Shown: positions 954 to 22,597 of the stretch, in pieces
How positions within the stretch are numbered: the first letter of the stretch is position 1
How the letters are laid out: each line of letters starts with the position of its first letter
DNA from: Candidatus Latescibacterota bacterium
GTDB lineage: Bacteria > Latescibacterota > UBA2968 > GCA-2709665
Reading direction: 5' to 3'
Length of the DNA stretch: 64,000 nucleotides
Assembly: GCA_965248435.1 (NCBI GenBank)
Contig: OZ252100.1
Coordinates: forward strand, 4,288,001-4,352,000
Made by a program: the position numbers and the translations under genes
Notes under the pieces: generated by a model
The model's input: the letters and a program-made list of their open reading frames with translations, nothing else
Databases searched by the model: none
What the model was told of the DNA's origin: nothing

Positions 954-1689
954 ATTTCCTTCTCAGTGGCACGAAATCGCTCAACCCGGTCATTTTTGGT
1001 TTGAATGGCGTTTTCTTGTCTTTTTAGACCTGGTTAAATCACTGGATATGGGGATGCATGAGGCGGTCAAAGCACTAGATGTCGGATGTGGACACGGCCT
1101 TGTTCGAAGACAAATGGAGAAAGTGCTTTCCTGGACGATTGACGGGATTGACCTGGACAACGGGGTTTTAGAAAAGAATATGGATCTACGAGGAGAGACG
1201 TTCATTTACGACGTACATGAACGTCGAAGTGCTCTGAAGGAAAAATACGACGTCATTCTTCTTTTCGACGTGCTTGAACACATCCGGGATGTTAGGTCGT
1301 TCCTGAACTCCGTCATCTTTCATTTGAGAAAAGGCGGAATATTATTTGTGAATGTTCCTGCCTTGAATGGACTTCTAGGTCCTTTCGACAGAGTTGTCGG
1401 GCACCTGCGCCGGTACAATATGGCCGCTTTGCGCACGGATCTAATGACCTGCGAATTGAAGATCTTGGAGATACACTACTGGGGTTTCAGCATGCTCCCT
1501 CTGTTGGTCCTACGCAAGCTAATTGACGGAGACGAAGGAAGCACCTCAGAGACGATTCGGAGGGGGCTTAAACCGCCTACGTTAAGAGTGAATCGATGGT
1601 TGAAAAGCGTCATGCGGATGGAAACGATGCTGGTTAAAAAGCCATTCTTGGGGACTTCTCTTTTCACTGCTGCAGCCAAGGCTTGGTAA
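919..1689 (+). CDS. Class I SAM-dependent methyltransferase
   Basis: LDVGCGHG motif I, DVILLFDVLEHI and VNVPA...GHLRRY. Confidence 0.88.
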   Translation: MGVPEQIERLNEFPSQWHEIAQPGHFWFEWRFLVFLDLVKSLDMGMHEAVKALDVGCGHGLVRRQMEKVLSWTIDGIDLDNGVLEKNMDLRGETFIYDVHERRSALKEKYDVILLFDVLEHIRDVRSFLNSVIFHLRKGGILFVNVPALNGLLGPFDRVVGHLRRYNMAALRTDLMTCELKILEIHYWGFSMLPLLVLRKLIDGDEGSTSETIRRGLKPPTLRVNRWLKSVMRMETMLVKKPFLGTSLFTAAAKAW

Positions 1690-1701
1690 AGGCTTAGAAC
1701 T

Positions 1702-2972
1702 GTGGGCTATTTTAACGCACGACAAAAACTAAATCTGGCAAGAAGCCTCCTGACCAAGACTAGCCCGGCATACGTACAATACTACATCACAGCGCGGTGT
1801 AACCTTGCGTGCGAACAGTGCAATATCATCTATGCCGATGCAGACAGTCAGGAGATGAACATTCACCAGATTAGGACTGCAGCCGAGAACTTTTCAAGAA
1901 TGAATGTCTGTATGGTGCTACTCATAGGAGGTGAGCCCTTTGTACGTAGAGACCTTCCTGAGATCATAGAGGCGTTTACTCGGGTAGACATTCACGTCCG
2001 AATGCAGACGAATGGATTGGCGACAGAGGAAATGATGCAACGCTGCATCGAAGCAGGCGGCCACGACATCAGCATTTCTCTGGATAGCCTGGATGCGGTT
2101 GTACAGGATGCGATCAATGGGGGCTATAAGAACTCTTGGAAGCGCGCGATCAAAACAATAGCGATGGTGAATCGGCTCTTCCCTGAAAACGGGACCGCAT
2201 TTTTTGGAACCGTGTTGTGCCTAGAAATTTGGATCATATTGTGGACGTCTTGGAGTTTGCTACCGCGATTGGATGGGGTGTTTCTCTAGTCCCAGCTCAC
2301 ACATCTACCCCCGAGCGCCCGCAGGGGTTTCGAGCCTTTGACGATTCAGGCATTTGCCGTTTTCCTGAATCCACGTACCACCGAATTCGAGAGGTCCTCA
2401 ATGAGTTGATAGCGCTGAAAAAGCAGGGCATGCGTTTGTACGATTCCAACGAATATCTAGACGATATATATCGCTTTATTGTTGGGGAACCCTTACGGTG
2501 GCGAGAACGCAACCACAATGTATGCGATTCCCCTTCACTCTACTTTGCTATTGAACCGAACGGTAACATCAATCCGTGTTGTGATTTCAAACTAGGCAGA
2601 TCCTTTCCGGTATACGATCCCGAATTCCCGGAGTGGTATCGCAGCAAGGTCATCCACGAGGAAGTCTACAAATATACGAGGAATTGCGCGGGATGTATGT
2701 ATGGCAGCTATCCAGAAATGACAATAACAGCCCGTTACCTAAAACCCATGTTGAGCAGGTTCGTCTTCTTCAATACAAAGACCCGAAATCTTCTTAAGAA
2801 AGTGGATGAGAAAGAGGTGACAGAGCTGGCTCAGGACATCTACCATCGCAACGAGCAACGGAGGAGACGTCTGGGAGTCAAGCCAGTCTCTATCGACCAG
2901 GATGAAATATTGAATATCGCCACTACTGAGGCTGATAGTGAGGCGACTGTCGAGATTTCCGATGAAGAATGA
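1702..2972 (+). CDS. Radical SAM/SPASM protein split by a -1 frameshift near 2200-2217 (ORFs 1702-2289 and 2217-2972)
   Basis: The first ORF has CNLACEQC, GGEP, QTNG and ISLDS. The second ORF has the Cys-rich SPASM-like C...IEPNGNINPCCD...CAGC. Adding one base gives a contiguous ...GTVL(M)PRNLDH.... Confidence 0.85.
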
Positions 2973-3888
2973 GAATGCCTTAAGATACCTGCTCCTGCGT
3001 CACTTTCAGGATTTTCGAACCTATGTTCCCAGAGACCGATTTCTAGAAGTGACGAAGAGCCTCCGCGTCTCCTGTGACAGGAATGTTTATACAGTAGCGT
3101 GGGCAAGTTCTGGAAAACAAAGGCGAGCCACATACCAAAGGGGAGACTTTTCGTTCTACGAGAGGGGTGACACAAAACCTGAGGCGCGTTCTTTTACCGA
3201 TGATTTAGGGAATGACAACAGTCGGCTTGCTCGTGCGTTTGTCGGAAAAGCTCTAGAACTTCGCCCATTGCCCAGGGTCGCATCGGAAGAAACTCGTGAG
3301 TCTTTTGACCCCATTCTCAAGTGTCACGTGTTCGAGGACCTTGTGTTTGTCATTCTTATGGCAACCATCGGACATACGGGTTACTTGAATGGTGGCCTAC
3401 TACTCTTGCTGTTGTTTTCTGATTACCTGAAAAGAAGCCAATTGTATGTTGCGGGGTTGTTTATCGTACTTGGTTTCCTGGGTTTGCAGGGTGGGGTCTT
3501 ATTGGGTGCGTTCGTTTATGCGATCCTGCAATTTATGGATCCAGAACCTGAAAACAGGCCATTAAGGATAGCTCTTAGTTTGGGCGCCTCTCTGATCGCC
3601 TTCCTATATGGTATCACAGGGTGGGGAGATGAGATTTATGTCGAAGAGGTATTCCTGGTCTTAATCATCCCCGCTTTTGTCATTTCTTTTTCGCGTTCTC
3701 TGGTGTCTGTTCACTTTCGTAAGATGCCACTTGTATTGCCCTTCTTTTGTGCAGGACTGGCGCTCAACCACTACACAACCGCAGCGGTTTCAGGTTTGCT
3801 GGCATGCGCCCTTTTTACAGGGATCGAGTTCTACATTCATAAATTCTTCCCGGTGCAAAGTGAAAGGTTGCTAAACCCTAACGGCTAG
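2962..3888 (+). CDS. Hypothetical membrane protein (soluble N-terminus, multi-TM C-terminus)
   Basis: ATG at 2962 overlaps the end of the upstream gene, and the C-terminal half has several hydrophobic segments. No family recognised. Confidence 0.65.
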   Translation: MKNENALRYLLLRHFQDFRTYVPRDRFLEVTKSLRVSCDRNVYTVAWASSGKQRRATYQRGDFSFYERGDTKPEARSFTDDLGNDNSRLARAFVGKALELRPLPRVASEETRESFDPILKCHVFEDLVFVILMATIGHTGYLNGGLLLLLLFSDYLKRSQLYVAGLFIVLGFLGLQGGVLLGAFVYAILQFMDPEPENRPLRIALSLGASLIAFLYGITGWGDEIYVEEVFLVLIIPAFVISFSRSLVSVHFRKMPLVLPFFCAGLALNHYTTAAVSGLLACALFTGIEFYIHKFFPVQSERLLNPNG

Positions 3889-3896
3889 GTTGTTGA

Positions 3897-5369
3897 ATGG
3901 AAAGCTTTCAGAGTAGAATCAGAAAATTGAATCTGGATAACAAATCCGCACGAATTGTCTTTGTTGTACTCAGCCTGGTATTCCTGGTTGGTATAAACTT
4001 TTTCCATGATTACATACTGGCCAGGAACTGGGTGATTTATCCTAACCCTCTCAATGTGAGGATAGATTCATCAATCATCGATTTTAACACGGTGTCATTT
4101 TGGAGATTGTTTCTGCCAGTGGAAGTCTCTGGGTATTACCGCCTGGGAACTACGGGATGGGTATTGGCTGAGTATTTGAACAGATTCATCGAACCGGTTT
4201 ACACGCTCTATATTTTCAGCGGAGCACTGGTTGTGGTATCATTTCTGACTTCATGGTTTGTCTTTCATTCGCTCTTATTTAGTTGCACGCTAGCTCTGTG
4301 CATGACCTTCGGTATTCAGTTTGAAATCAAATACCTTGCAGGCAACAACGTATTTATTATCACCTACGCGATCTACCTTGTCCTTAGCCTGTTCTGTATA
4401 TATCAAGTAATGGTTAGGGATCGTGTTATCTGGAGAATCGGTTACTTATTCAGCTTAATTGCGTTTGCTCTATGTTTTGCGTCTTGGGTGAACATCCTGG
4501 CTTTTCTCGGCTTGTGTTTGAGCTATGTCCTCTTTCTCTCGCATCGTAACGGCCTTCCTGAATTCAAGCCAAGAGTTTTGTATGTTGCCGTTTCGTCTGC
4601 CGCTGTTGCCTTGGTATGGGCCGTTCTAAGATTTGTAGATTTCTTGCAAGGTGCGAAACATGGGGCGAGACATATGGGGATAAATACGGGTGGTGAAGAG
4701 GATCTGGTGTTCAACTATATTCGGAAGGGGTATCCAATAATAGCGATTGACGATATTGTCACGAATTTGATCAAGTATATCTACATGGCCTTGACGAATT
4801 ATCTGCCAATCACATTTACTTTTCCCACTTCGCTTCCTGTGTACGGAAGAGAGATCTTGATTGCTCAACAACACAGACACAACCTAACTTCCGAAAATCT
4901 TGCGAACTTCGACCTTATCTATGGACACTATCTGCTGTCTTGGTATCTGTATGCCGGTATCGTGTTTGGCATTTTCTGTTTTCTCTCTTTCAAGGTCATT
5001 TCGTCCTCCCTCAAGAGTCCGAGTCGTACCAATATCGCTTTGACCATTTTCCTTTTCTTGATCTGGTCTGGTTTTGCTACGCATATTTTCATTAAGATTC
5101 GTCCTTATACTGTAGTCCCTGCCCTTGGCTACAAGTATAGTATCAGCTGTTTTGGAGTTGCGCTTTTGATTTCCTATTTACTTATGATTTCCAGAGAACG
5201 AATTCGCAATTCGAGTTTTTCTATAGGTGTCATCTTTTTTTCTTGGTTCCTGATCATATACGCGGGATTAACAAAACCTAAATTTCTTGCTGCATTGGGT
5301 CAGTACTGTGGGATGTATTGGCCCTTCCTGGACTTTTTTACAGAAATCTCGTGGATGTTCCATAACTGA
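3897..5369 (+). CDS. Polytopic membrane protein, putative GT-C-fold glycosyltransferase
   Basis: 490 aa with many TM segments and two large loops, including an early loop motif GYYR. It follows a GtrB-like GT2. Confidence 0.55.
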   Translation: MESFQSRIRKLNLDNKSARIVFVVLSLVFLVGINFFHDYILARNWVIYPNPLNVRIDSSIIDFNTVSFWRLFLPVEVSGYYRLGTTGWVLAEYLNRFIEPVYTLYIFSGALVVVSFLTSWFVFHSLLFSCTLALCMTFGIQFEIKYLAGNNVFIITYAIYLVLSLFCIYQVMVRDRVIWRIGYLFSLIAFALCFASWVNILAFLGLCLSYVLFLSHRNGLPEFKPRVLYVAVSSAAVALVWAVLRFVDFLQGAKHGARHMGINTGGEEDLVFNYIRKGYPIIAIDDIVTNLIKYIYMALTNYLPITFTFPTSLPVYGREILIAQQHRHNLTSENLANFDLIYGHYLLSWYLYAGIVFGIFCFLSFKVISSSLKSPSRTNIALTIFLFLIWSGFATHIFIKIRPYTVVPALGYKYSISCFGVALLISYLLMISRERIRNSSFSIGVIFFSWFLIIYAGLTKPKFLAALGQYCGMYWPFLDFFTEISWMFHN

Positions 5370-5478
5370 AGCTTCACCATTGGTTAATGGCCAAGTTTCT
5401 CTGACGAGATCAGCATCAGGCTGGAGATGCCAAAAGTCGGACATGGTAATCTACACTAGCTGAAAGGAAGAAGGGTTT

Positions 5479-6264
5479 ATGAGGTACAAAGGCAGTGACG
5501 AATGGGAGAACAGAAGTGATTATGCGGAGACGTTCTACAAACGCGCCAAAGGGTCGCTTCCAGAGATGGAGTCCAGTAAGGCCGTTGCGAGTCTTTTGGC
5601 AGAGAAGATCAGCGAAGGCGACTCAATCCTCGATGTGGGTTGTGGCGCAGGACATTATCTAAGATCTCTTTTAGCGCGTGTTACGAAACCATTTAGCTAC
5701 CAAGGCGTTGATGCTACTCCAGATTTTATCGAGAAGGCATTGGTGGCATGGGGGCATCAGAAGAATGCTTGCTTCAGAGTTGGGGATATCTACGATTTAC
5801 CCTTTTCTGATCGCGAATTCGACATTGTAATGTGTAATAATGTGTTGCTGCATCTGCCGTCCATTGTCAAGCCGGTCCTAGAATTGTTGAGGGTGGCGCA
5901 AAGATTTGTACTGATTCGCACCTTGATCGGCGATCGATCCTTTAGAGTACAAGAGGTGTATTCAAAAGCGTTCTGGCCATTTTCTGACATTCCTGTGGAG
6001 AGGGAATTTGATGACTGCGGAGATCCGGTGAGCTATGGCTTTGAGAATATCTATTCAAGCGGTTACTTTGAGGCCGTAATTAGAAGGGCCCATCCTGATG
6101 CTTCAGTAGAGTTCATCAAGGATTCGTTTTTCGATCCGGAAGCGATCAATCGCTCAGCAAACACCGAAGGGTTACCGAACGCGACAAGGGTCATCGATGG
6201 AATGCAGACACTTGGATACATTATTACTCCGTGGACTTTCGTGTTCGTCGGACTTCAACGGTGA
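5479..6264 (+). CDS. Class I SAM-dependent methyltransferase
   Basis: ILDVGCGAG, GVDAT and GDIYDLPF...FDIVMCNNVLLHL. Confidence 0.9.
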   Translation: MRYKGSDEWENRSDYAETFYKRAKGSLPEMESSKAVASLLAEKISEGDSILDVGCGAGHYLRSLLARVTKPFSYQGVDATPDFIEKALVAWGHQKNACFRVGDIYDLPFSDREFDIVMCNNVLLHLPSIVKPVLELLRVAQRFVLIRTLIGDRSFRVQEVYSKAFWPFSDIPVEREFDDCGDPVSYGFENIYSSGYFEAVIRRAHPDASVEFIKDSFFDPEAINRSANTEGLPNATRVIDGMQTLGYIITPWTFVFVGLQR

Positions 6265-6278
6265 AATCGCGAGTCAAA

Positions 6279-6920
6279 ATGAAGCCAATGATCTTGGGTG
6301 TGATCCCTGCTCGAGGCGGGAGTAAGGGCCTTTCTGATAAGAACCTACGTCCTCTATTCGGAAAGCCGCTAGTCGCTTGGAGTATCAGCGCGGCCAAAGA
6401 GTCGAAGCTGATTGACCGGTTTATTGTTTCTACAGAAGATGACGAGATTGCCGATGTGGTGCATCAAGAAGGGGCAGAGGTTCTGTCTCGCCCTGCGGAA
6501 CTGGCTACTGACGATGCAACGACTTTGTCCGTTCTGATTCACGTGCTTGAACAGATCCCAGCAGACGTGGTGGTGTTGCTGCAGCCCGTCTGTCCAATCC
6601 GTGTGAATAATCTTGTTGATCGGGCGATTGATCGCTTTCTGAAAACTGGCGTGGACTCTTTGGCTACAGGTCATATTCTCAAAATTCTTGAATGGGGTAC
6701 ACACAACAACCTTTCTAGACAGAAGATAGACGGATTCTTTCACGACGATGGAAACGTGTATATTCATCGTGCAGAGGTGCTACGGAAAGGGAGATGGTAC
6801 GGCGAACGCTTGGAGCGCATGGTGGTTGAACACTATTATAATGTAGATATCGACGATGAGGTTGACTTATGGGTGGCCGAGGCCATCATGCAGAAGTTGA
6901 AAGCACAGGATGATCATTAG
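6279..6920 (+). CDS. neuA: Acylneuraminate cytidylyltransferase (CMP-NulO synthetase) 1
   Basis: IPARGGSKG...KN...GKPL, VSTED, LLQP and DIDD. The likely ATG is at 6279. Confidence 0.9.
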   Translation: MKPMILGVIPARGGSKGLSDKNLRPLFGKPLVAWSISAAKESKLIDRFIVSTEDDEIADVVHQEGAEVLSRPAELATDDATTLSVLIHVLEQIPADVVVLLQPVCPIRVNNLVDRAIDRFLKTGVDSLATGHILKILEWGTHNNLSRQKIDGFFHDDGNVYIHRAEVLRKGRWYGERLERMVVEHYYNVDIDDEVDLWVAEAIMQKLKAQDDH

Positions 6921-6959
6921 ATACAACAATCTGGTAGGTGAGAGAAAAGCGTCTACGAG

Positions 6960-8114
6960 GTGAGAAACTCTGAATTTTACGCGCCAACGCGGATCCTGTT
7001 GTCGGATAACTCCGCCGAGACGCTCGCAGAGATCTTAAAGTATAACAAGGCAGAACGTACGGTCGTGCTGGTGGATCGCAATGTGTTTTGCATTCGGAAA
7101 ATTCAGCAGATCATTCGATATCTCGAAAAGTTGGGTCTGGAAGCTAGGGTTGTAGAGGTAGATGCTCACGAGCCTGATACTGACCTCGTTGACGAGTACA
7201 CGAAAGTGTTCAAAACGGAACCGCTGGATTTCCTTGTGGGTATCGGGGGAGGGAGCACACTCGATCTGGCAAAAGCAGTATCTGTCTTGGCGTTCAATCC
7301 AGGCTGTGCAGCTGATTACCAGGGGCGCGATCTGTTGCCCAGTTCCGGATGTCCAAGTGTTATGATGCCAACCACCGCGGGTACAGGTAGCGAGGTAACG
7401 CCTGGGGCCGTTGTGTTAGACCCCAAGACCAAGCGGAAAGGGGCCATTTCGAGCCCCTATATCACGCCGGACTATGCCGTGTTAGACCCCGAACTGACCT
7501 TGTCCATGCCCCCTGAAGTAGCTGCGGCAACTGGCCTCGATGCGCTTGGGCACGCTGTTGAATCTTTCACTGCACAATGTGCGACTCCTATGACGAAGAT
7601 GTATAGTAAGGAAGCATTCCGGCTCATCACGAGCAGCCTGACGGCAATTCTTCAGGAGAAGGACAGTTTGGACAGGCGAAGGGGCCAACAGCTGGGAGCC
7701 ACGCTGGCCGGAGTTGCGATCTGTAACTCCGATACCGGAGCCTGTCATGCGATGGCCTACCCGCTTGGAATCTATTTTCAAATACCCCACGGTGTGGCCG
7801 TCGCCCTTTTGTTAGCCCACGTAATCGATGTAAACGTCCGAAAAGGGGCGCGGCAATACGCCGAACTCGCTGATTTGTTGCCGGAAGATTCTGAGGGGCT
7901 CTCTGAAGAGGAGAAGTGCTGGAAGTTTCAGCGGTTTGTCGCGGATCTGGTGCCCAGTGGTGTCCTCCCATCCTCACTTCGGCATTACGGTGTGGAGTCG
8001 TCAGACTTGCCGGAGTTGGCAGAACGAGGTCTCGACTTGAAAACGGCGTTGAGCAATAACCCTGTCGATTTCACGAAGGACGATGCTCAATACGTCCTCG
8101 AGCAACTCATGTAA
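6960..8114 (+). CDS. Iron-containing alcohol dehydrogenase family protein (KdnB-like by context)
   Basis: GIGGGSTLDLAK, PTTAGTGSEVT, DALGHAVES, HAMAYPL and PHG metal-ligand motifs. Confidence 0.9.
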   Translation: MRNSEFYAPTRILLSDNSAETLAEILKYNKAERTVVLVDRNVFCIRKIQQIIRYLEKLGLEARVVEVDAHEPDTDLVDEYTKVFKTEPLDFLVGIGGGSTLDLAKAVSVLAFNPGCAADYQGRDLLPSSGCPSVMMPTTAGTGSEVTPGAVVLDPKTKRKGAISSPYITPDYAVLDPELTLSMPPEVAAATGLDALGHAVESFTAQCATPMTKMYSKEAFRLITSSLTAILQEKDSLDRRRGQQLGATLAGVAICNSDTGACHAMAYPLGIYFQIPHGVAVALLLAHVIDVNVRKGARQYAELADLLPEDSEGLSEEEKCWKFQRFVADLVPSGVLPSSLRHYGVESSDLPELAERGLDLKTALSNNPVDFTKDDAQYVLEQLM

Positions 8115-8141
8115 TTCACAAAATGCGTTAGATCCTCTGAG

Positions 8142-9389
8142 ATGAAAAATAAGACTCAGGTCACAGGATTGAAGACAAAGGGTGACAGGATATCTGTACC
8201 CGATTCCTATATCCTTCCCTGGAGTGGTCGCGGAGTTGACTATACAGAAGAGGACATCCGCGTTGTTAGTGATGCGATGCGCCACGCTGATCCTTTGACC
8301 TGCGGACCCTATCTGCTGGAGTTCGAGGGCAAGTTCTCAAAGTATCATAGGGGTATTGCATCTTTCGGTGTGTCTTCTTGTACGGCTGCGCTGGAACTTT
8401 CCGCGATCTTGACTCAGGTTGGTCCTGGCGATGAAGTGATTATACCCTCACACACCTATTGCGCAACCGCAATTCCTTTTGCTCGAAGTGGGGCTAGCAT
8501 CGTCTGGGCGGACATCCATCCAGATTTCCGGGTCGTTACAGCGGAGACGATTTCGCAAAGGATCACGTCGAAAACCAAAGTGGTGGTTGTTGTGCATCTC
8601 TATGGGCTTGCGGCCCCGATGGCTGAGATCATGGGGTTGGCAAAAGACAAAGGGCTTTTGGTGGTCGAAGACTGCGCTCAAGCGATTGGTGCCAGTCACA
8701 ACGGTCGCAAAGTGGGGACCATTGGCGATTTTGGGTGTTTCAGCTTCCACGGTCAGAAGAATATCACGACTCTAGGGGAAGGTGGGATGCTGACGGTCCA
8801 ATCAAGAGAGCTTGCCCAGTTGGTGCCCGGTCTCAGGCAAAACGGCCATCGACCATATCCCGGAGACAGGGAACGGTACTGGCTGCCGGCCATGGTTGAT
8901 ACTGACTTTGACATTCCTGATGTCTGGCCCTATAAATATTCTCTAGGGGAAATTCAGTGTGCTCTGGGCGTGAACCTTATGATGCGGCTGGACGAGCTCA
9001 GCGCACTTCGGTTTCAGCAGGCAAAACGAATCGTCACGGCATTGGAATGCTATCCCGAACTCAGTTTTCAGCATACTCCCAAGGGTAGCTCACACGTGTA
9101 CCATCTTTTGAGTGCCCGGTACGACGGAGAGGAGTTCGGAAAAACACGGGACGACCTAATCGATCTGTTAGCCTTCAAGTACCGCATCCAGGCGATCGTG
9201 CAGTACTATCCGCTGGACCGATATCCATTGTTCACCCGGGCGGAATTCGGTGCGGGGGATTGTCCACATACTGACAACTTCTTCGATAACATGGTTTCAT
9301 TTCCTTTCTATCCCTGGTTCAGTGATCAGCAATTCGAATATTTGGTCGAGAGCGTTAAGGAGGCTCTGGAAACCCTAAGAGAGGGATAG
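8142..9389 (+). CDS. DegT/DnrJ/EryC1/StrS PLP-dependent aminotransferase
   Basis: SSCTAALEL, VVHLYG, VEDCAQAIG and FSFHGQKNITTLGEGG (PLP lysine). Confidence 0.92.
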   Translation: MKNKTQVTGLKTKGDRISVPDSYILPWSGRGVDYTEEDIRVVSDAMRHADPLTCGPYLLEFEGKFSKYHRGIASFGVSSCTAALELSAILTQVGPGDEVIIPSHTYCATAIPFARSGASIVWADIHPDFRVVTAETISQRITSKTKVVVVVHLYGLAAPMAEIMGLAKDKGLLVVEDCAQAIGASHNGRKVGTIGDFGCFSFHGQKNITTLGEGGMLTVQSRELAQLVPGLRQNGHRPYPGDRERYWLPAMVDTDFDIPDVWPYKYSLGEIQCALGVNLMMRLDELSALRFQQAKRIVTALECYPELSFQHTPKGSSHVYHLLSARYDGEEFGKTRDDLIDLLAFKYRIQAIVQYYPLDRYPLFTRAEFGAGDCPHTDNFFDNMVSFPFYPWFSDQQFEYLVESVKEALETLREG

Positions 9390-9394
9390 GCCAT

Positions 9395-9928
9395 ATGCCT
9401 GATCCACCAGACGTAGTAGCTCGGAAGGCACAGGAGATCCGTTTGGTCTGCACAGACGTCGATGGTGTGCTTACCGATGGCGGAATGTACTATTCTGAAA
9501 GCGGGGATGAACTCAAAAAATTTAACACAAGAGATGGAATGGCCATTGCACGGTTGCAGGCTGCGGGAATCGAGGTCGCTATCATCACTGGTGAGGACAC
9601 GGCGCTCGTTGCTCGCCGAGCCGCCAAGTTGAACGTGAAGTACCTGTTTCAGGGAGTTAAAGATAAGAAGCGGGTGCTAGCAGCGCTTGCGGATCGGTTG
9701 AAACTCAAGTTGTCCCAAGTTGCTTACATAGGTGATGACATAAACGATCTAGGCGCCCTTCGGGCTTCCGGATTAAGTGCCACAGTAAGTGATGCACTAG
9801 AATCAGTTAAGAGTGAAGTATGCTACGTTTGTCAAATGACTGGTGGAAGCGGGGCACTTCGAGAGTTCACAGAGCTGATTTTGCGAAGCCAAGACGAAAC
9901 TGGAAATGTTATTCACCAGATATCGTAA
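9395..9928 (+). CDS. kdsC: KdsC/YrbI-family HAD phosphatase (ulosonate-phosphate phosphatase)
   Basis: DVDGVLTDG, KKFNTRDG, IITGE, GVKDK and YIGDDINDL. Confidence 0.9.
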   Translation: MPDPPDVVARKAQEIRLVCTDVDGVLTDGGMYYSESGDELKKFNTRDGMAIARLQAAGIEVAIITGEDTALVARRAAKLNVKYLFQGVKDKKRVLAALADRLKLKLSQVAYIGDDINDLGALRASGLSATVSDALESVKSEVCYVCQMTGGSGALREFTELILRSQDETGNVIHQIS

Positions 9929-9962
9929 CGAACCCTTGTGATTGGTCAAGGAGCTTGGGTTT

Positions 9963-11051
9963 ATGAACATTCATATCGGGAACCACATCGTTGGTGGTGA
10001 CGCTAAATGTTTTCTGATTGCCGAGATCGGATTGAATCATAACGGGGATGTTCGTATCGCTCGAAAGCTGATCGAAGAAGCTGCCAGGGTTGGTGCCGAT
10101 GCAGTCAAGTTTCAGAAGCGGACAATAGAAGATGTGATCATTGGGGAGTATCTCGAAAGGCCCTATGCTGGCTATAACTCATATGGTGCGACGTATGGGG
10201 AACATAGGGCTGCGCTCGAACTTCAGGACGAAGTCTGGCCTGAGCTGCGTGATCTGAGCCTTAAGCTCGGATTGGAGTTTTTTGCCAGTCCGTGGGACGA
10301 GAAGAGTGCTGATTTTCTAGAGGAGTTGAACATTCCAGCCCTCAAGATCGCATCAGCTGACCTGACGAATCTTCCCCTTCTGAAACATGTAGCGGCCAAA
10401 GAGAAACCTGTGATCTTATCCACAGGCATGAGCACGATGAAGGAGATTGAAGAGGCCGTTTCCACCGTTCAAAAGATTAATCCGCAGTTGGCGTTGCTAC
10501 ATTGTGTCTCTACCTATCCCTTTGACGATCATCACGCGAATTTAAGTATGATACCTATTTTGAAGGACAGATTTCCACAAGCCGTGATTGGTTATTCCGG
10601 ACACGAAAAATCAGGACACATAATTTCTGTTATGGCAGCTGTGTTAGGTGCGAAAATCATAGAGCGGCATTTTACGCTAGATCGCACGCTGAAAGGCCCG
10701 GACCATGCCGCTTCCCTGGAACCACACGGGTTTGGTTTTATTCATGAGAACGTAAGGAAGGCTGAGGCTGCCATGGGTTCGGGAGAGAAGCGTATTCTAG
10801 ATAGTGAGAAACCGATTCGCGAGAAATTGGCGAAAAGCGTTGTTTCGAAATGCGATATCAAGGCAGGGACCGTCATCACAGCAGATATGCTCACTGTGAA
10901 GAGCCCTGGGATTGGGATAGTGCCGACACAGCTCCAGGATCTTTGCGGTCGGACCGCGATGGTCGATGTTGCAGTTGATACATTGCTCCCAACAGATGCG
11001 TTGACGTGGCCGCTGACGCGGGTTGAGGCGGCCCTTACTAGCTCGGATTGA
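9963..11051 (+). CDS. neuB: NeuB-family nonulosonate synthase 1 with C-terminal SAF domain, resembling 9-phosphate synthases (NANS-like)
   Basis: IAEIGLNHNGD, KFQKR, LERPY..SYG.TYGEH, GYSGHE and ERHFTLDR..GPDHAASLEP. Confidence 0.92.
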   Translation: MNIHIGNHIVGGDAKCFLIAEIGLNHNGDVRIARKLIEEAARVGADAVKFQKRTIEDVIIGEYLERPYAGYNSYGATYGEHRAALELQDEVWPELRDLSLKLGLEFFASPWDEKSADFLEELNIPALKIASADLTNLPLLKHVAAKEKPVILSTGMSTMKEIEEAVSTVQKINPQLALLHCVSTYPFDDHHANLSMIPILKDRFPQAVIGYSGHEKSGHIISVMAAVLGAKIIERHFTLDRTLKGPDHAASLEPHGFGFIHENVRKAEAAMGSGEKRILDSEKPIREKLAKSVVSKCDIKAGTVITADMLTVKSPGIGIVPTQLQDLCGRTAMVDVAVDTLLPTDALTWPLTRVEAALTSSD

Positions 11052-11114
11052 TCAAGATTGGGTGAATTTTTCAGTGAGAGTAATTTTGTATTTCACGTGA
11101 GGCTGTACTGTTCT

Positions 11115-11143
11115 GTGACAAATAGACAAGCGAATTCTAGAAT
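11115..11143 (+). promoter_or_regulatory. Candidate sigma70 internal promoter
   Basis: GTGACA, 17 nt, then TAGAAT in an AT-rich intergenic gap, ending 5 nt before the ATG at 11149. Confidence 0.35.
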
Positions 11144-11148
11144 AGAAA

Positions 11149-12507
11149 ATGGCTAAAACGGCTTTGATCGTCATCGACAATTCTAAGAGAGAACTATTTG
11201 GTTGCTCTTTGTTGAAGCGGTGTTTGGCTTCAATGGGCATTCGATCGCTGCTTTGCAGCCGGTTTGCGTTTAATACCTATTATGCACATTATGCTCCTGA
11301 TGCGATTGTATGGCCAAACGCGTTTTCTGATCTTTCGAGTTTTCAGAAGTCCAGCCACATTTTTGTATTGCCCAGTGAATCAGGAAATGGACAGCCCGAT
11401 CAAGTGGTTGCAACCCACGCGGGAACCGACATTCATCCGGTGTATCCGGAGTGTGTCGACCGATTCTTCTGCTGGGGACATGCGATGCGGGAGCTTCTAC
11501 TCCAGACCGGGACGTGGCGTGAGGACCAGTTGATTGCGACTGGAAGTCCGGCCACGGACCACTGGCTATTGCCCAGATCCGAGTCCAGGCTCACACCCCC
11601 GAGGGCTGGCTTGACGACCACGTTTAGGGCCATCAATAACGGCAAAACGAACCATTTTAAATGGCTTGATCAAGTTGAGCGTGTGGGGGGGGACGGAACC
11701 TACTTCGCTCCTCCGCAACACGCGGAGTCGTGGCTTTTTTTCGAGGCCTCACTCGCGCGCGTGATGGCGGACTTGGTGCGTACTCTCGCCTTGGATCGTA
11801 GCGAAATCATGACGATTCGCCCCCATCCGTTTGAAGACGAGGTTCGATATAAACACTTCCAGGAGCTTACGGACGGACGTGTATTTGTGACGAAACAGGG
11901 CACAATCACGGAGTGGCTTGATAGAATTTCAATCCTGTTCACCTGCGTCTCTGCTTCTGCGCTGGATGCTGTTGTCCGCGGTGTGCCGGTCGTATCGCTA
12001 AAGGGTCTGCTCGATCCGGATGCGGTCAGGAAAATTCCCTCCGATTTCCATTATGAATACGAGGATCTGCTATGGCAGCTGGAAGATACAGAACAGGCTG
12101 TTGATTATTTTCGGCTAGCAGCCAAGGGGGAACTCAGGCCATGCCGTGACGAAAAACGAATATTTGAGTTTCTACACAGACACTTCCTGTTTCCCAGGAG
12201 AATTCCGGCAGCAATGAATATTGCGCTGGAGATCAAAAACGCGTTTGAGGGGGGTGCGGATCGAAAGGGAGGATATACCGTTCCACGCTCTAAGGTCCTG
12301 AAGCACATGGTTCGCCGGCACGTACCGATGTTTCCCCAATTGATCGCCCTCCGAAAATACTTGTCAAGCCTATTGCCGAAGCGCAAGAACATCGGTTTCT
12401 CATATCAGCCCTGGCGTGTTCGGGAGCAGAGAACCGCCATACAAACTGCTGACAAGCTATTATCTGTTTGGAATAGGGACGGAGAGATAGTCACGGAGCC
12501 CCGGTGA
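11149..12507 (+). CDS. Surface carbohydrate biosynthesis protein, putative GT-B transferase
   Basis: N-terminal DNSKREL, then FCWG, TGSP..D, IRPHPFE and SASALDAVVRGVPVVS, a GT-B-like C-terminal pattern. Confidence 0.65.
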   Translation: MAKTALIVIDNSKRELFGCSLLKRCLASMGIRSLLCSRFAFNTYYAHYAPDAIVWPNAFSDLSSFQKSSHIFVLPSESGNGQPDQVVATHAGTDIHPVYPECVDRFFCWGHAMRELLLQTGTWREDQLIATGSPATDHWLLPRSESRLTPPRAGLTTTFRAINNGKTNHFKWLDQVERVGGDGTYFAPPQHAESWLFFEASLARVMADLVRTLALDRSEIMTIRPHPFEDEVRYKHFQELTDGRVFVTKQGTITEWLDRISILFTCVSASALDAVVRGVPVVSLKGLLDPDAVRKIPSDFHYEYEDLLWQLEDTEQAVDYFRLAAKGELRPCRDEKRIFEFLHRHFLFPRRIPAAMNIALEIKNAFEGGADRKGGYTVPRSKVLKHMVRRHVPMFPQLIALRKYLSSLLPKRKNIGFSYQPWRVREQRTAIQTADKLLSVWNRDGEIVTEPR

Positions 12508-13712
12508 GAATCTGCACCTTGGCGTGTAGGGTGAAAAGGGGATTTATACTGAAAATGAGAGTCAAAGGTATTTCGTTCTGCTTGCTGGGATTTATAGTGA
12601 CTTACAGCGGGGGCTTCGTGATTCTGTTGCTGAGACTCGTGAATCTACACCCTGAAACTAGTGAAATCGTTCGGACGGCTGCTATCGGTTTGGCAGGGAT
12701 ACTGTATTTAGCAGGATGCTACATTGCTACCGAACTGGCAAGCAAGTCCATTCTCCGCAGGGTACATCCATCTTTGCTCAAGGAAAGTGCGCAACCCGCT
12801 TTGCAAATGATGCCACATGTTTTCACTCACTTCATTCCTTGTAATTCATATGCTGATGTGAAAGACCATTTTCGCCTCGCTGCACGGGCCGACCGATCTA
12901 AGGTGGGAAAAATCGTATACCTAGCGGGAGACTGTACTATTTTCGAGGAACATTTAGATGTTCACGAAAGTATGGCTTTTCAGCTGAACGACCAACTATG
13001 CGATTGGAGTATGTTAAACGCGGGAGCACCTCATTACAGCATATTGCACGCGTACAACCGGTTGGTGTTTGATGTGAGCAGAGGCTACAAACCTGATATG
13101 GTCCTGTTGTTCTCCGCCGCAAACGATGTGCTGGGTTTTATTCACCACAAAGATGGTTTTATTGATGATGCGCACACGCACATGTACAGGCCTTGGTTGC
13201 CCTACGGGGGTGTCTCTAATAGGTTTGGCCGAATTCCGTCGTCGAGTTTGAAGCTGCTGTTTGCATATTTCATCATCGATAGACGGGACTGTGCTTGGAA
13301 CAATCTTGCGGAATCTACCTCTGATGTGTTTTTCGAGGAAGATAGTGTTAGAACTGCCAGGGACCTTTTCAACACTTCTACATACTCGAGATGTTTGGGA
13401 TTGTTTTTGTCCACGTGCAGAGCAATCGATGCTGAATTCGTGCCAACTACATTTTACTACAACAATTTGGATATGCAAAACGAGCCGCGTAGGACGTATG
13501 CCTGGGGGATCGATCAGATCAACGATTTGGTCATAAATTTTTCTCAAGCCAATGGTATTAGATTTGTAGACTTCGCAAAGCGGCTGGATCTAGTTCCGGA
13601 GCGTGACATACACAATAAGTGGCACTACACGCCGGACGGAAATCGGAAGCGCGCTCTGCTTTTGAAAGACGAGCTAGCTTCATCTGTCGGACTCAAAATT
13701 GGGAGTTACTAA
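12504..13712 (+). CDS. Membrane-anchored SGNH/GDSL-like protein
   Basis: Two N-terminal TMs, then block-like motifs GDC (Ser replaced by Cys), NAG, AND and HYTPDGN. Confidence 0.6.
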   Translation: MRICTLACRVKRGFILKMRVKGISFCLLGFIVTYSGGFVILLLRLVNLHPETSEIVRTAAIGLAGILYLAGCYIATELASKSILRRVHPSLLKESAQPALQMMPHVFTHFIPCNSYADVKDHFRLAARADRSKVGKIVYLAGDCTIFEEHLDVHESMAFQLNDQLCDWSMLNAGAPHYSILHAYNRLVFDVSRGYKPDMVLLFSAANDVLGFIHHKDGFIDDAHTHMYRPWLPYGGVSNRFGRIPSSSLKLLFAYFIIDRRDCAWNNLAESTSDVFFEEDSVRTARDLFNTSTYSRCLGLFLSTCRAIDAEFVPTTFYYNNLDMQNEPRRTYAWGIDQINDLVINFSQANGIRFVDFAKRLDLVPERDIHNKWHYTPDGNRKRALLLKDELASSVGLKIGSY

Positions 13713-13776
13713 CTTGCTATTCAAGGTCCGTATTTCAAAGGCAACGGATTCCATGTCGGTAAGGGAGATCATGTAG

Positions 13777-14730
13777 GTGAGAGTTCTTGTCACAGGCGGA
13801 TGCGGCTTTATTGGTTCCCACGTGGTAGACAAGCTGCGGGACAAAGGAATCGATGTTCGGGTCTACGACTTGATCCACAACGCCGAGTTGATGCGAGACG
13901 ATGTAGAGTACATCGGTGGGAGCATCCTTGATTTTCACCGTCTTGTGGGCGCGATGTCAGGGGTATACGCGGTCTACCACCTTGCCGCGATAGCGGACGT
14001 GAAGGAGGTGCTCGAAAATCCTCACCGGTCTGAAGAGATCAACGTTCGTGGCACGATAAACGTCCTAGAAGCAGCGCGCTGCATGGCAGTACGACGGGTC
14101 ATCTACGGAAGCTCGACCTGGGTGTACAGTGAGGCAGATGGAGACGAGGTGGACGAAACTACGCCGTTACTATCCCCATCGCATCTTTATACTGCAACGA
14201 AGATGGTGGGGGAATACTACTGTAGAAGCTACACGGAGCAATACGAGGTGCCTACTACTGTACTTCGCTACGGGATTCCATATGGCCCCAGGGCACGAGA
14301 TGGAGCGGTTCTGCCGATATTCGTTGAGAAAGCGCTCTGTGGCGAGCCTTTGGCAATTTCGGGAGATGGATCGCAATATCGGAAGTTCGTCTACGTTGAA
14401 GACCTTGCCGATGGAAATGTCAAAGCACTTAAATCCACCGCACCGTATCGTGTCTACAACCTTGACGGGCTCGAAAAGAATAGCATCAGACAGATTGCAG
14501 AGACGATCAGGGAAATCTTGGGAAGTGTGGAAATTAAATATGTTGAGGCACGTCCTGGAGATTTTTCCGGCAAGGAGGTTTCGAGCGAACGTGCACAGCG
14601 TGAGCTCGGTTGGGAGGCGACTACACCTTTCAAGGAGGGAGTTCGGCGCTACATAGAGTGGTACAAGGTGCGCCGTGAGGGTCGAGAGTTGATGGACAGG
14701 CGAGAGAGGGACCTGATCCAGACTCTTTAG
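13777..14730 (+). CDS. NAD-dependent nucleotide-sugar epimerase/dehydratase (extended SDR)
   Basis: VTGGCGFIGSH, HLAA, YTATK (YxxxK), YGP and GDGSQ.RKFVYVEDL. Confidence 0.92.
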   Translation: MRVLVTGGCGFIGSHVVDKLRDKGIDVRVYDLIHNAELMRDDVEYIGGSILDFHRLVGAMSGVYAVYHLAAIADVKEVLENPHRSEEINVRGTINVLEAARCMAVRRVIYGSSTWVYSEADGDEVDETTPLLSPSHLYTATKMVGEYYCRSYTEQYEVPTTVLRYGIPYGPRARDGAVLPIFVEKALCGEPLAISGDGSQYRKFVYVEDLADGNVKALKSTAPYRVYNLDGLEKNSIRQIAETIREILGSVEIKYVEARPGDFSGKEVSSERAQRELGWEATTPFKEGVRRYIEWYKVRREGRELMDRRERDLIQTL

Positions 14731-14932
14731 CCCCACTGCCGTAGAAATCGATCCTCTCATACGCACCTCTGATTCCGAGGTCCGCTGTCGGGACCGCCTA
14801 ACCCTAATACGAGCGCGGGTGCGACGCCAGCACCCCACAGGGGAAGGGTTCACTGGCGAACACCACAAGTTGTACAACAACGATGGCATACTACAACATC
14901 TCGATGTCCCGAATTGCCCTTGTGAGAATTTC

Positions 14933-15967
14933 GTGCCCCAGACAATCACGATAGAAGGCCGAATGATCGGACAGGGGCAACAGACCTTCATCATCGCGGA
15001 ACTGGGATACAACTTCCGAACGCCAGAAGAGGCCCTGGCTTCGGTCGACGCGGCGGCCGACTGCGGCGTCGACGCGCTCAAAATTCAGACGTTCAAGGCG
15101 GAGACGATCACGACGCAGACCGTCGACTTTCCGGAGGAGGCCGGCGGCGTCAATCAGTTCGACGAGTTCAAGCAATACGAGATATCTGAGGTGGTGCACC
15201 GTCAGATTTTCGACCGATGCCGAGAGCGGAGCTTGATCCCGTTTTCCACGCCGAGCCATCCGGACGACGTCGACCTGCTAGAGCGGCTTGGGTCGCCGAT
15301 CTACAAGGTCGGGTCCGACGATTTGACCAACTTGCCGTTTTTGGACTACGTCGGTAGGCAAGGTAGGCCGGTCATCTTCTCGTCGGGAATGGCGACGCTC
15401 GGCGAAGTAGACAAGGCGATTCACGTGCTTCACGAGGCGGGAAACCGCGACCTGATTCTTCTCCAGTGCGTGTCGAACTACCCGATCAAGGACGTGTCCC
15501 AGCTGGACCTGAACGTGATCCGAACGTATCGCCGTGTGTTCCCGGTCCACGTGGGGCTTTCGGACCATACGCAGTCATTTGTTGCTGCGATTGCGGCTGT
15601 CGCACTCGGCGCGTGCGTGGTCGAGAAGCACTTCACGCTCGATAAAGCGCTGCCGGTCCCGGACGCATTTTTCTCAGCCGACCCGCAAGAGATGAAGCAT
15701 CTGGTAGACGCGCTTCGGGAGGTGGAGCAGATGCTCGGAGCGGGGTACAAGACGCCTAGCGCGTCCGAAAAGGGTATGCGAACCGAAACGCGAAAGAGCA
15801 TCATCGCGCTGAGAGACCTGCCTGAAGGGCATCAGATCGGAGACAGTGACGTGATCATCAAGCGTCCGGGGAATGGCATCGAGCCGGCGCTCCTTCAGGT
15901 CGTGATCGGCCGGACGACCCGCACGGCGATTCCGGCGGATACACCAATCGAATGGTCAATGGTTTGA
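14933..15967 (+). CDS. neuB: NeuB/PseI-family nonulosonate synthase 2 with SAF domain
   Basis: IAELGYN, KVGSDDLTN, QCVSNYP, GLSDHT and EKHFTLDK. The start is placed tentatively at GTG 14933; the ORF is open from 14819. Confidence 0.88.
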   Translation: MPQTITIEGRMIGQGQQTFIIAELGYNFRTPEEALASVDAAADCGVDALKIQTFKAETITTQTVDFPEEAGGVNQFDEFKQYEISEVVHRQIFDRCRERSLIPFSTPSHPDDVDLLERLGSPIYKVGSDDLTNLPFLDYVGRQGRPVIFSSGMATLGEVDKAIHVLHEAGNRDLILLQCVSNYPIKDVSQLDLNVIRTYRRVFPVHVGLSDHTQSFVAAIAAVALGACVVEKHFTLDKALPVPDAFFSADPQEMKHLVDALREVEQMLGAGYKTPSASEKGMRTETRKSIIALRDLPEGHQIGDSDVIIKRPGNGIEPALLQVVIGRTTRTAIPADTPIEWSMV

Positions 15968-16986
15968 CGGATCCGGTATGCCGGGTCGCGTTTGTCGCGG
16001 AGTCGGAACAGGCCATCGGCACGGGTCACGCGGTCGAGACGATAGCGTTGTTGCGGGCGTGCGTCGGCTTCGGGATCGAGCCGAGGGCGGTATTCACGGC
16101 CGGGACGCCGCAGCCCCTGCTTGACGGGATCAAGACGGATTTCGAGACGATCGATGAGCCGGACGAGAAGACGCTCCGAGACACGGCTGCCCGACTGGCC
16201 TGGGACGGGGTGTCAACGGTGGTGACGAACTTTCGACGGATCACCGAGGACCAGATTCAGGCCCTGCGAGACGGAGGGCTGAGGACGGTCTGTATCGACG
16301 AGTTGGGCGGGCGGACCATTCACCCGGACGTCATCGTGAATACGTCGATCGTTCGGACTTTTCAAGTGTATCCCGGTACGCGCGCCCGGGTGCTAGCCGG
16401 TCCCGCTTATTTGCCGCTTGACACACGCTTTAGTACGGCGCGAACGAAACGGAACTTTCCGCAGGGGGTGCGGGCAATCGCGGTTTCGATGGGCGGAACG
16501 GACCGGACGCAGGCTACGCGCCGGGTGGTCGCGTCCCTGCGGAACGTAAGCGAAATCCGTCTGCACATCGTCGTCGGGCCCGGGTTCACGTTCACGGAAG
16601 CGCTAGCCCAGGAGGTCGCCGGATGCGCGGGACAGGCGACCCTACACCGAACGCCCCCAAAGCTGCAGCAGATTCTCGGGTGCGTGGATGTGGGGATCAC
16701 TGCTGGGGGCAACACTCTCTACGAGCTCGCGTGCCTCGGGACGCCTGCCCTGGTGCTGTTCGAAGATGAGCACGAAAGACTGCAGGGCGAGGCGTTCGAG
16801 GCCGCCGGGTTTGGCAGGTGCCTCGGGCAGGGGGTTTCGTTCCAACCGGAGGCGCTGCTGTCGGCGATCGAGGCCATGGACGAAGCCGGGACCCTTTCCG
16901 GGCACAGCGAGGCAGGACGAAAGCTTGTGGACGGACGCGGTGTGGAGCGTGTTTTGAGTGTCGTGCGGGAGATCTCCAAATACTGA
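15952..16986 (+). CDS. PseG/SpsG-like GT-B nucleotide-sugar hydrolase
   Basis: IGTGH, CIDE, LAGPAYLPL, VSMGGTD and ITAGGNTLYELACLGTP. It is adjacent to NeuB. Confidence 0.8.
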   Translation: MVNGLTDPVCRVAFVAESEQAIGTGHAVETIALLRACVGFGIEPRAVFTAGTPQPLLDGIKTDFETIDEPDEKTLRDTAARLAWDGVSTVVTNFRRITEDQIQALRDGGLRTVCIDELGGRTIHPDVIVNTSIVRTFQVYPGTRARVLAGPAYLPLDTRFSTARTKRNFPQGVRAIAVSMGGTDRTQATRRVVASLRNVSEIRLHIVVGPGFTFTEALAQEVAGCAGQATLHRTPPKLQQILGCVDVGITAGGNTLYELACLGTPALVLFEDEHERLQGEAFEAAGFGRCLGQGVSFQPEALLSAIEAMDEAGTLSGHSEAGRKLVDGRGVERVLSVVREISKY

Positions 16987-16998
16987 CGGGAGCGAACC

Positions 16999-18075: not shown

Positions 18076-18187
18076 TCCATGAGCATCCAGGAAGACCTGT
18101 GGAAGATTTCGGATCGGCTTGGGAGGGCTTGTCCCCGTCTAGCAATGACGAAGCTTCGGCTATGATCGAAGCCGTTCGGGCCTGCTC

Positions 18188-19162: not shown

Positions 19163-19202
19163 GCAAGGATTACCACGACTAGGTAAGAAAAGAGTAGCCG
19201 AT

Positions 19203-22370: not shown

Positions 22371-22597
22371 TACTTACGGACCTGAGGTATTTTTTTTCCA
22401 GATTTTTGGGTTGATTCCCGTTCGAGCTAGATCCAAAGGGTTTCCGCCAATCTGTCTCATAATTGTTCAGACATGGTAAACAACTCTGATGAGGCTCGTA
22501 AGAGCGTCAGCGAAGAACTTGCTGAACGATTGGCTGAATATTCAACGCCAAGTGCTCTATGTTTTTAGAGGCTAACTTAATTTCTTTGGTTGCTTGA

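Follow-up and report, generated by a model that had tools for sequence, protein, structure and literature searches.

What sugar does a bacterium make when a sialic acid-type synthase, an alcohol dehydrogenase, and an aminotransferase are encoded side by side? The question is raised by a run of genes at positions 5479-12507 of a 64,000-nucleotide stretch of Candidatus Latescibacterota DNA (assembly GCA_965248435.1, contig OZ252100.1, positions 4,288,001 to 4,352,000), the whole of which is referred to here as the window. Nonulosonic acids (NulOs), the nine-carbon sugars to which sialic acid belongs, cap microbial surfaces and shape host, phage, and immune recognition. On balance, we lean towards the reading that this operon makes a cytidine monophosphate (CMP)-activated amino-nonulosonic acid, most likely a 9-amino-9-deoxy derivative of 2-keto-3-deoxynononic acid (Kdn). 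In the proposed pathway, the NeuB-family synthase (gene 9942, genes being named by their first position in the window) would condense phosphoenolpyruvate (PEP) with a hexose 6-phosphate, for which mannose 6-phosphate is the most economical candidate, and the KdsC-like phosphatase of the haloacid dehalogenase (HAD) family (gene 9395) would free the terminal C9 hydroxyl. The iron-dependent alcohol dehydrogenase (Fe-ADH; gene 6960) would then oxidize the C9 primary alcohol to an aldehyde, the DegT-family aminotransferase (gene 8142) would transaminate this aldehyde, and the cytidylyltransferase (gene 6231) would activate the sugar as its CMP form, leaving the methyltransferase (gene 5479) and the product of gene 11149 to tailor and transfer it. 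We infer the substrate, the Kdn backbone, the aminated carbon, the order of the steps (on the free or the CMP-linked sugar), the N-methylation and its site, and the transferase.

All 7 open reading frames (ORFs) lie on the plus strand, and because neighboring genes are separated by only −34 to +98 bases they constitute a single operon-like run (Table 1). The coordinates and, apart from the putative GT-B label of gene 11149, the families that the original prediction had assigned to them were confirmed with the ORF list, Pfam, and NCBIfam, and the enzymes retain the cofactor and catalytic motifs examined. Whether the gene order recurs elsewhere had been left as a question; methyltransferase, CMP-transferase, Fe-ADH, DegT, HAD, and NeuB follow one another in identical order in a contig of a Gemmatimonadaceae metagenome-assembled genome (L099/L100; 56-69% identity). 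The grouping of the operon genes is far beyond chance. The operon itself sits in a polysaccharide locus of more than 50 kb that reaches a Wzy-like protein and an initiating sugar transferase.

The constant element of the module is the DegT aminotransferase. By equivalog cut-offs it is neither PseC nor LegC, since PseC (TIGR03588; 217.5 bits, cut-off 423.5), which is its best NCBIfam match, LegC (TIGR04181; 139.5 bits, cut-off 420), and WecE all score far below the required values. Its nearest entries in the PDB are a scyllo-inositol or sugar aminotransferase, WecE, and perosamine synthetase, and residues K206, D177, and Q180 are invariant in the alignment of the subfamily (alignment A2). A quick IQ-TREE analysis of 83 rows placed the subfamily in a single clade, parted from the LegC and a second DegT protein of the Latescibacterota genome by a branch of 2.68 changes per column (SH-like approximate likelihood ratio test, 99). 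At least 120 DegT homologues with 55-77% identity were found, and when species genomes were searched with alignment A2, 373 of the 404 matching stretches proved to be relatives. The module is accessory, a DegT match being present in 3 of 40 relatives (46-47% identity) and none in a genome of the same genus. Elsewhere in the Latescibacterota genome we observed a second NulO locus, a cluster of the legionaminic acid (Leg) type (L086), in which LegI (451 bits) and LegC (479 bits) both score above cut-off, alongside NeuD and a PtmE-like transferase. Its NeuC looks truncated, because it covers model positions 64-365 only and follows an IS30 transposase.

To count the partners of DegT we took the best 80 of the 373 relatives (46-68% identity to the window's enzyme) and the genes within 6 kb of DegT; since only 54 of these 80 loci extend 3 kb on both sides, absences are in part due to truncation. 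An Fe-ADH was present in 51 loci, in 2 of them fused to DegT (confirmed by Pfam in L101), and an aldo/keto reductase (AKR), mostly 10 bases or fewer downstream of DegT, in 24 loci free of Fe-ADH, such that 75 of the 80 carry a redox partner of one kind or the other. NeuB was found in 57 loci, a CMP-transferase in 50, a HAD phosphatase in 19, and a candidate dehydratase of the short-chain dehydrogenase/reductase (SDR) family in 7. Fusions join the same partners: DegT and Fe-ADH form one protein in two bacteria of the candidate phyla radiation (L101 and L102; 753 amino acids) and in P0147 (673 amino acids), DegT and a cytidylyltransferase (PF02348) in P0189 and P0208 (627 amino acids), and NeuB, SAF, and a cytidylyltransferase in L103 (593 amino acids). 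Cytidylyltransferase-HAD fusions of 381-437 amino acids occur in several phyla (L105, L110, L111, and several Anaerolineae loci).

These data bear on a different role for DegT, in which it would act like PseC or LegC on a nucleoside diphosphate (NDP)-4-keto-6-deoxyhexose to supply a second NulO-like gene set lying directly downstream, the Fe-ADH being unrelated. That set has no aminotransferase of its own, and PseC is the best-scoring family for gene 8142. The Leg and pseudaminic acid (Pse) pathways (LegB/LegC, PseB/PseC) likewise combine a DegT-family aminotransferase with a NeuB-family synthase and yield a CMP-activated product; LegC and PseC aminate NDP-4-keto-6-deoxyhexoses made by SDR dehydratases before the condensation. 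In contrast to those pathways, the equivalog scores fail in the window, a long branch lies between the DegT subfamily and LegC, several lineages encode DegT as a fusion with Fe-ADH or the CMP-transferase, and SDRs are rare near DegT (7 loci) compared with Fe-ADH or AKR (75 loci). We consider an NDP-sugar substrate quite improbable. Adjacency, fusions, and the scarcity of SDRs instead agree with the earlier placement of the Fe-ADH/DegT pair in a NulO pathway, and these comparisons support well a predicted step in which a nonulosonate is oxidized and then transaminated.

The NeuB and HAD genes look like a 9-phosphate module, as had also been proposed. NeuB 9942 is a family member by PF03102 (267.4 bits) and SAF (35.7 bits), and was not filed as an N-acetylneuraminic acid (Neu5Ac) synthase because its TIGR03569 score (318.1) is below the cut-off of 399.65. 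A FastTree analysis of 66 NeuB sequences placed it in a group of 23 (support 98) in which 21 members have a HAD gene in the locus, versus 2 of the 43 outside; from this HAD-linked clade alone, NeuB 9942 would be predicted to use a phosphorylated substrate. The HAD protein carries the DVDG motif and scores 174.9 on the Kdn-9-phosphate phosphatase model NF058599 (cut-off 180) and 172.4 on the KdsC model (cut-off 208), with 131 bits to BT1713 (3e81) and 138 bits to KdsC (3mn1) in the PDB. BT1713 residues 56, 64, and 67 align to Glu, Arg, and Lys in the window's HAD, and across 21 HADs (the window's and 20 from the loci) these residues are present in 21, 19, and 21 sequences, respectively, while the KdsC-like 3mn1 has Arg in place of Glu56. 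The three residues reportedly mark Kdn-9-phosphate specificity. As the HAD is the sole KdsC-family match in the 5.67-Mb genome and no 3-deoxy-octulosonic acid (Kdo) 8-phosphate synthase (KdsA) scores above cut-off anywhere in that genome (best 124.8 bits versus 314), it is not a housekeeping Kdo enzyme; a housekeeping KdsC, which we had considered, was ruled out on these grounds and by the co-variation of the HAD with the NeuB clade. The sequence suggests that the organism may make no Kdo.

The same gene content could be read as a route to an eight-carbon acid resembling 8-amino-8-deoxy-Kdo (Kdo8N), with the NeuB-family enzyme and the KdsC-like phosphatase replacing KdsA and KdsC where these are missing. 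The HAD scores about equally on the two phosphatase models, KdsA is missing above cut-off, and Fe-ADHs of the type of KdnB, the oxidase of the Kdo8N route, are common beside DegT. Nevertheless, every characterized NeuB-family enzyme is said to make a nine-carbon acid, the cytidylyltransferase is of the NeuA/PseF type (PseF model 113.9 bits, cut-off 205.7, against 37-54 bits on KdsB models), and all 21 HADs have the BT1713-type Glu where the KdsC-like protein has Arg, so we give an eight-carbon product very little credence. No ManNAc-forming gene or UDP-GlcNAc 2-epimerase was found among the annotated ORFs of the window, and mannose 6-phosphate and Kdn are thus the economical guess for substrate and backbone. 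The nearest parallel to this part of the operon is the Kdn pathway of Bacteroides thetaiotaomicron, which likewise uses a NeuB-family synthase, a KdsC-like C0 HAD, and a cytidylyltransferase (reportedly a Kdn-9-phosphate synthase, the Kdn-9-phosphate phosphatase BT1713, and a CMP-Kdn synthetase). It differs from the operon in that it is said to contain no oxidase or aminotransferase, and the window's HAD falls just under the NF058599 cut-off.

Which carbon is aminated was approached from the side of the dehydrogenase. Kdn and Neu5Ac each have a single primary alcohol, the C9 hydroxyl. Fe-ADH 6960 matches PF00465 and PF25137 (126.9 and 134.6 bits) and carries the GGGS motif and the Asp/His positions of the family; the alignment of its homologues (alignment A1) shows no variation at G96-S99, D194, H198, and H277 and almost none at H263, the Asp and His residues presumably being metal ligands as in FucO. 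Its closest PDB entries (167-187 bits) are methanol dehydrogenase (186.6 bits), 1,3-propanediol dehydrogenase, and the lactaldehyde reductase FucO, and these best solved and characterized relatives all interconvert primary alcohols and aldehydes. Homologues with 40-69% identity occur in metagenomes of many phyla. The window-type enzyme has a motif of its own, N-S-[ND]-T-G-A-[CA]-H, in which Tyr replaces the usual second His, and the corresponding DNA pattern was found in 8 species genomes of a collection of 185,579 species, a lower bound because an exact match was required. The 8 genomes are those of a Methanoregula, two Gemmatimonadota, an Omnitrophica, a Prevotella, Treponema primitia, an Elusimicrobiota, and a Verrucomicrobiota. 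An orthologue of the window's DegT (53-69% identity) directly adjoins the Fe-ADH in 8 of 8, each of the 6 contigs of sufficient length has a NeuB no more than 3 kb away, and the HAD is either free or fused to the cytidylyltransferase. A separate scan with alignment A1 hit the universal Fe-ADH motif, and the 80 generic loci it returned (40% identity or less, most 38% or less) were not used.

Beside DegT, the Fe-ADH partners are of three types, assigned by best bit score against three representatives: 31 KdnB-type, 8 window-type, and 9 resembling a paralogue in the same genome. Two of the KdnB-type assignments (L138, L104) were checked against the PDB, the other 29 resting on BLAST to the Leptospira representative. 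The Fe-ADH of Leptospira interrogans (L138) matches KdnB (5k8c) over its full length with 382 bits, and the alphaproteobacterial one (L104) with 299 bits; the best scorers outside the 3rf7/5k8c pair reach 75 and 102 bits, respectively. On the DegT tree, at least 8 changes of partner involve the KdnB type, 6 the window type, and 5 the paralogue type, and such repeated exchange of oxidoreductases within one DegT clade argues for a common reaction. KdnB, the one characterized member, is said to oxidize the terminal CH2OH of Kdo; in Shewanella, KdnB and KdnA reportedly turn the terminal CH2OH of a 3-deoxy-2-ulosonic acid into CH2NH2 before CMP activation. The Kdo8N route of Shewanella oneidensis (5k8c, 5k8b) is thus likewise built on an Fe-ADH-family oxidase and a DegT-family aminotransferase, and the two enzyme names appear in a table of PMC5125639. 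Because the partners in the window are NeuB and a NeuA-type CMP-transferase, a nine- rather than an eight-carbon sugar is expected. The KdnB-type partners and the primary-alcohol relatives of Fe-ADH 6960 together form the main argument for amination at C9.

Several observations weigh against this scheme. The C9 position itself is proposed by analogy. The window's enzymes had been predicted to be KdnB- and KdnA-like, and by sequence they are not: KdnB ranks 30 of 41 against Fe-ADH 6960 (100.1 bits, aligned over residues 70-283 only), which belongs to another subfamily, and KdnA (5k8b) ranks 20 of 55 against DegT 8142 among all PDB chains (112.7 bits) and 25 of 35 against the Leptospira DegT orthologue (101.3 bits). 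Neither window enzyme is an orthologue, and none of the loci tested has a KdnA-like member of the DegT subfamily (101-113 bits). A link to KdnB does exist, indirectly, through the 31 of 80 loci in which DegT orthologues adjoin KdnB-type Fe-ADHs. Solved relatives of the AKR partners comprise both ketone and aldehyde reductases, so this partner is uninformative as to aldehyde or ketone. Leg-type genes (LegC, NeuD, SDR) accompany DegT in L113 and L121; legionaminic-type sugars are 9-deoxy, and therefore either the SDRs in such loci spare C6 or the pair acts at another carbon. The Leg cluster of the Latescibacterota genome contains a paralogous Fe-ADH (41% identity, Gly for His263) and another DegT (32%). 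A UDP-GlcNAc 2-epimerase in the Prevotella locus means that the backbone is possibly Neu5Ac-like in some hosts. Finally, the phosphatase is optional across the wider module; with a HAD in just 19 of 80 loci, the 9-phosphate route is not required for amination. In HAD-less loci, amination could take place on C6 of the free hexose and give the same product.

Some of these points would suit the same oxidation and transamination at a carbon other than C9, namely Kdn C5 (giving neuraminic acid), C7, C8, or C4, or, ahead of the condensation, one bearing a secondary hydroxyl in the hexose phosphate. Ring ketones are the usual substrates of DegT enzymes, the best solved matches of DegT 8142 are scyllo-inosose-type and NDP-ketosugar aminotransferases, the best solved relatives of the AKR include the ketoreductases DepB and MtmW, and both the L113 and L121 loci and the paralogous Fe-ADH associate with 9-deoxy sugars. 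However, 31 of the 80 loci have a KdnB-type partner, whose characterized member reportedly oxidizes a terminal primary alcohol, the nearest characterized relatives of the window-type Fe-ADH are all primary-alcohol enzymes, and the conserved core contains no N-acyltransferase. Free neuraminic acid is unstable because its 5-amine cyclizes onto C2, which a 9-amine should not do. We therefore regard another carbon as unlikely, and retain C9 as the probable site.

The module is also present in a pathogen. L. interrogans ATCC 43642 (L138) carries it within the 'sialic acid' cluster LA_1605-LA_1615 described in PMC3438082 and PMC4758666. LA_1612-LA_1615 were matched by gene order and by a 512.7-bit match to the LA_1612 family; by gene order, LA_1613 (neuB2), LA_1614 (aminotransferase), and LA_1615 (neuA2) correspond to the L138 NeuB, DegT (50% identical to 8142), and CMP-transferase. 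The role of the LA_1614 aminotransferase is listed as '4, 13, or ?' in Ricaldi et al. 2012 (PMC3438082), which does not contain the word 'dehydrogenase', and the cluster table of Fouts et al. 2016 (PMC4758666) ends at LA_1615/neuA2, no alcohol dehydrogenase being mentioned in that paper. The KdnB-type Fe-ADH lies directly beyond neuA2 and outside the published cluster table. The Leptospira NeuB2 (753 amino acids) is unlike the window's NeuB: it combines a CBS-like N-terminus, NeuB, SAF, and a xylose-isomerase-like TIM barrel, and Pfam and NCBIfam detect no HAD or phosphatase domain in it; PMC4758666 speaks of a phosphatase domain in this protein. As in the window, a radical SAM (S-adenosylmethionine) protein, a carbamoyltransferase, and a protein of about 590 amino acids are encoded downstream, following the DegT, CMP-transferase, and Fe-ADH genes. 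Leptospira is reported to make Neu5Ac (PMC3438082), a point in favor of amination at another carbon. The same source lists unassigned peaks at m/z 407 and 440 after derivatization with 1,2-diamino-4,5-methylenedioxybenzene (DMB). Nominal m/z 407 equals the value calculated for a C11H20N2O8 sugar (9-amino-Neu5Ac, for example) after DMB derivatization and loss of water, and isomers fit equally; as a lead only, the peak could be such an amino sugar.

Within the DegT clade, 27 rows from Anaerolineae, Planctomycetota, Lentisphaerota, and Armatimonadota form a sub-clade with no Fe-ADH nearby (Table 1). Its operons combine DegT with two ABC permeases, an MFS_2 transporter, a BT_1020-like beta-propeller, a lyase resembling dihydrodipicolinate synthase (DHDPS) and NanA, and the AKR. 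The lyase adjoins DegT in about 15 of the loci, and matches to it lie within 5 kb in 17, 3 of them at just 23-30% identity. This operon appears to mirror the biosynthetic pair in the catabolic direction. It also bears on the idea that what the Fe-ADH and DegT make is a small aminated group (an amino alcohol or an amino acid side chain, for instance) for attachment to a conventional nonulosonate. Nonulosonates are said often to bear unusual acyl groups, and the nearest relatives of the Fe-ADH use small alcohols; against this, the pair has no conserved ligase or acyltransferase beside it, and the DegT-CMP-transferase fusions together with the lyase/DegT/AKR operons point to a sugar acid as the substrate of DegT. 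A substituent has, in our estimate, only a slim chance of being the product.

Taken more broadly, the comparisons permit a tentative proposal, which we hold with a little less than even confidence: terminal 9-amino-9-deoxy sugars (Kdn9N, Neu5Ac9N), often tailored, would be a hitherto unrecognized core NulO class made by a dedicated DegT and interchangeable oxidoreductases, be these KdnB-type, of two other Fe-ADH types, or AKRs. The proposal also takes in hundreds of bacterial and archaeal species, the catabolic mirror operon, and the Leptospira m/z 407 peak. As the original prediction had stated, no characterized route of this kind was found in the literature searched, which excluded supplements and lay outside most subscription journals. 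Judged from sequence, this is a widespread predicted pathway that applies Kdo8N-type chemistry to nonulosonates and that we did not find described. Hundreds of microbial species, pathogenic Leptospira among them, share the uncharacterized gene set; its cultured non-pathogenic carriers include Treponema primitia ZAS-10 (L097) and Nitratidesulfovibrio sp. HK-II (L179). If the proposal is correct, the most exposed end of the sugar would gain a positive charge and a chemical handle from its terminal amine, and the '?' aminotransferase of the Leptospira 'sialic acid' cluster, along with the Fe-ADH omitted from the published tables, would gain a function. The enzymes would then offer a biocatalytic route to 9-amino sialic acids, which are otherwise synthetic and serve as probes and inhibitors.

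Table 1. Positions of the operon genes, their neighbors, and features of related loci (window positions unless a locus is named).
Feature	Position	Strand	Evidence or remark
Radical SAM domain ORF	1702-2289		Overlaps next ORF, different frame
C-terminal radical SAM-like ORF	2217-2972		Weak match
SAM-dependent class I methyltransferase	5479..6264	+	PF13649 and other methyltransferase Pfam families
CMP-nonulosonate synthetase (NeuA/PseF-type cytidylyltransferase)	6231..6920	+	PF02348, 93 bits
Fe-ADH (group III alcohol dehydrogenase), predicted oxidase making the carbonyl for transamination	6960..8114	+	PF00465, PF25137
DegT-family pyridoxal phosphate aminotransferase, distinct NulO-linked subfamily, predicted amination step	8142..9389	+	PF01041, 283 bits
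KdsC-like HAD, predicted nonulosonate-9-phosphate phosphatase	9395..9928	+	NF058599, 174.9
NeuB-family nonulosonate synthase with SAF, predicted condensation of PEP and hexose 6-phosphate	9942..11051	+	PF03102, 267.4
Top sigma-70-like match	11115-11143		10/12 positions
'Surface carbohydrate biosynthesis'-type protein, candidate NulO transferase	11149..12507	+	TIGR04396, 84.2 (weak)
Weak SGNH/GDSL-like protein	12504..13712	+	PF13472, 22.8 bits (cut-off 32.9)
Second NulO-like set, whole	13777-26662
SDR, second set	13777
Divergent NeuB, second set	14819
PseG-like protein, second set	15952
Radical SAM/SPASM protein, second set	16999-18075	+	28% homologue in L138
Unknown protein	18188-19162	+
Carbamoyltransferase, second set	19137-21008	+	40% homologue in L138
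Methyltransferase	21008-22237	+
594-amino-acid protein	22598-24382	+	30% homologue in L138
Cytidylyltransferase, second set	24379
Methyltransferases, PIG-L deacetylase, and FkbM methyltransferase, second set
Leg-type cluster of the same genome (L086)	G000:C1:1701000-1720000		Genes 1540-15239
DegT-Fe-ADH fusion	L101:7992-10253
NeuB-SAF-cytidylyltransferase fusion	L103:9184-10965
L. interrogans NeuB2	L138:5712-7973
L. interrogans Fe-ADH	L138:9887-10954		KdnB-type
DegT of the AKR sub-clade	~8001-9245		L141, L147, L148, L151-L153, L155, L158, L159, L162, L163, L167, L168, L171, and others

The two outermost genes of the operon are less widely shared. Methyltransferase 5479 has a 64%-identical orthologue at the same position in L099/L100, and no orthologue was found at 6 kb or less from DegT in any of the remaining 79 loci, which places it outside the module core; as a guess, it is a candidate tailoring enzyme. 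The product of gene 11149 has weak matches to TIGR04396 (84.2, cut-off 125) and to the BFO_1060 glycosyltransferase family (39.7, cut-off 200) and no Pfam match at E ≤ 0.001, the 'putative glycosyltransferase' family DUF6716 coming closest (E = 0.0016). A profile built from this protein had no match in the PDB, and comparison by hhalign with two window proteins resembling GT-B glycosyltransferases gave a probability of 0.07. It has 41 homologues with 34-100% identity, and these lie within 6 kb of DegT in L133 and L135, directly upstream in the latter. Our guess is that it is a candidate NulO transferase.

The second NulO-like gene set downstream could be either a separate pathway or a source of tailoring for the first. 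Within it, the genes from 16999 to 24382 are a possible accessory tailoring set: among the 80 loci, a radical SAM protein is encoded within 6 kb of DegT in 16, a carbamoyltransferase in 8, and the 594-amino-acid protein in 8. The SGNH/GDSL-like gene between the operon and this set overlaps the 3′ end of gene 11149 and has no counterpart in the other loci examined.

A scan of the region for promoters and terminators returned no more sites than shuffled sequence; the top sigma-70-like match falls inside the 98-base gap that precedes gene 11149. Operon DNA was found in four sequencing runs of one study, with no RNA run listed. Upstream of the operon, a radical SAM gene appears to be broken into two overlapping ORFs that are read in different frames; the first holds the radical SAM domain, and the second has a weak match to the C-terminal portion of a family of radical SAM proteins. 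A frameshift or a sequencing error may account for the break.

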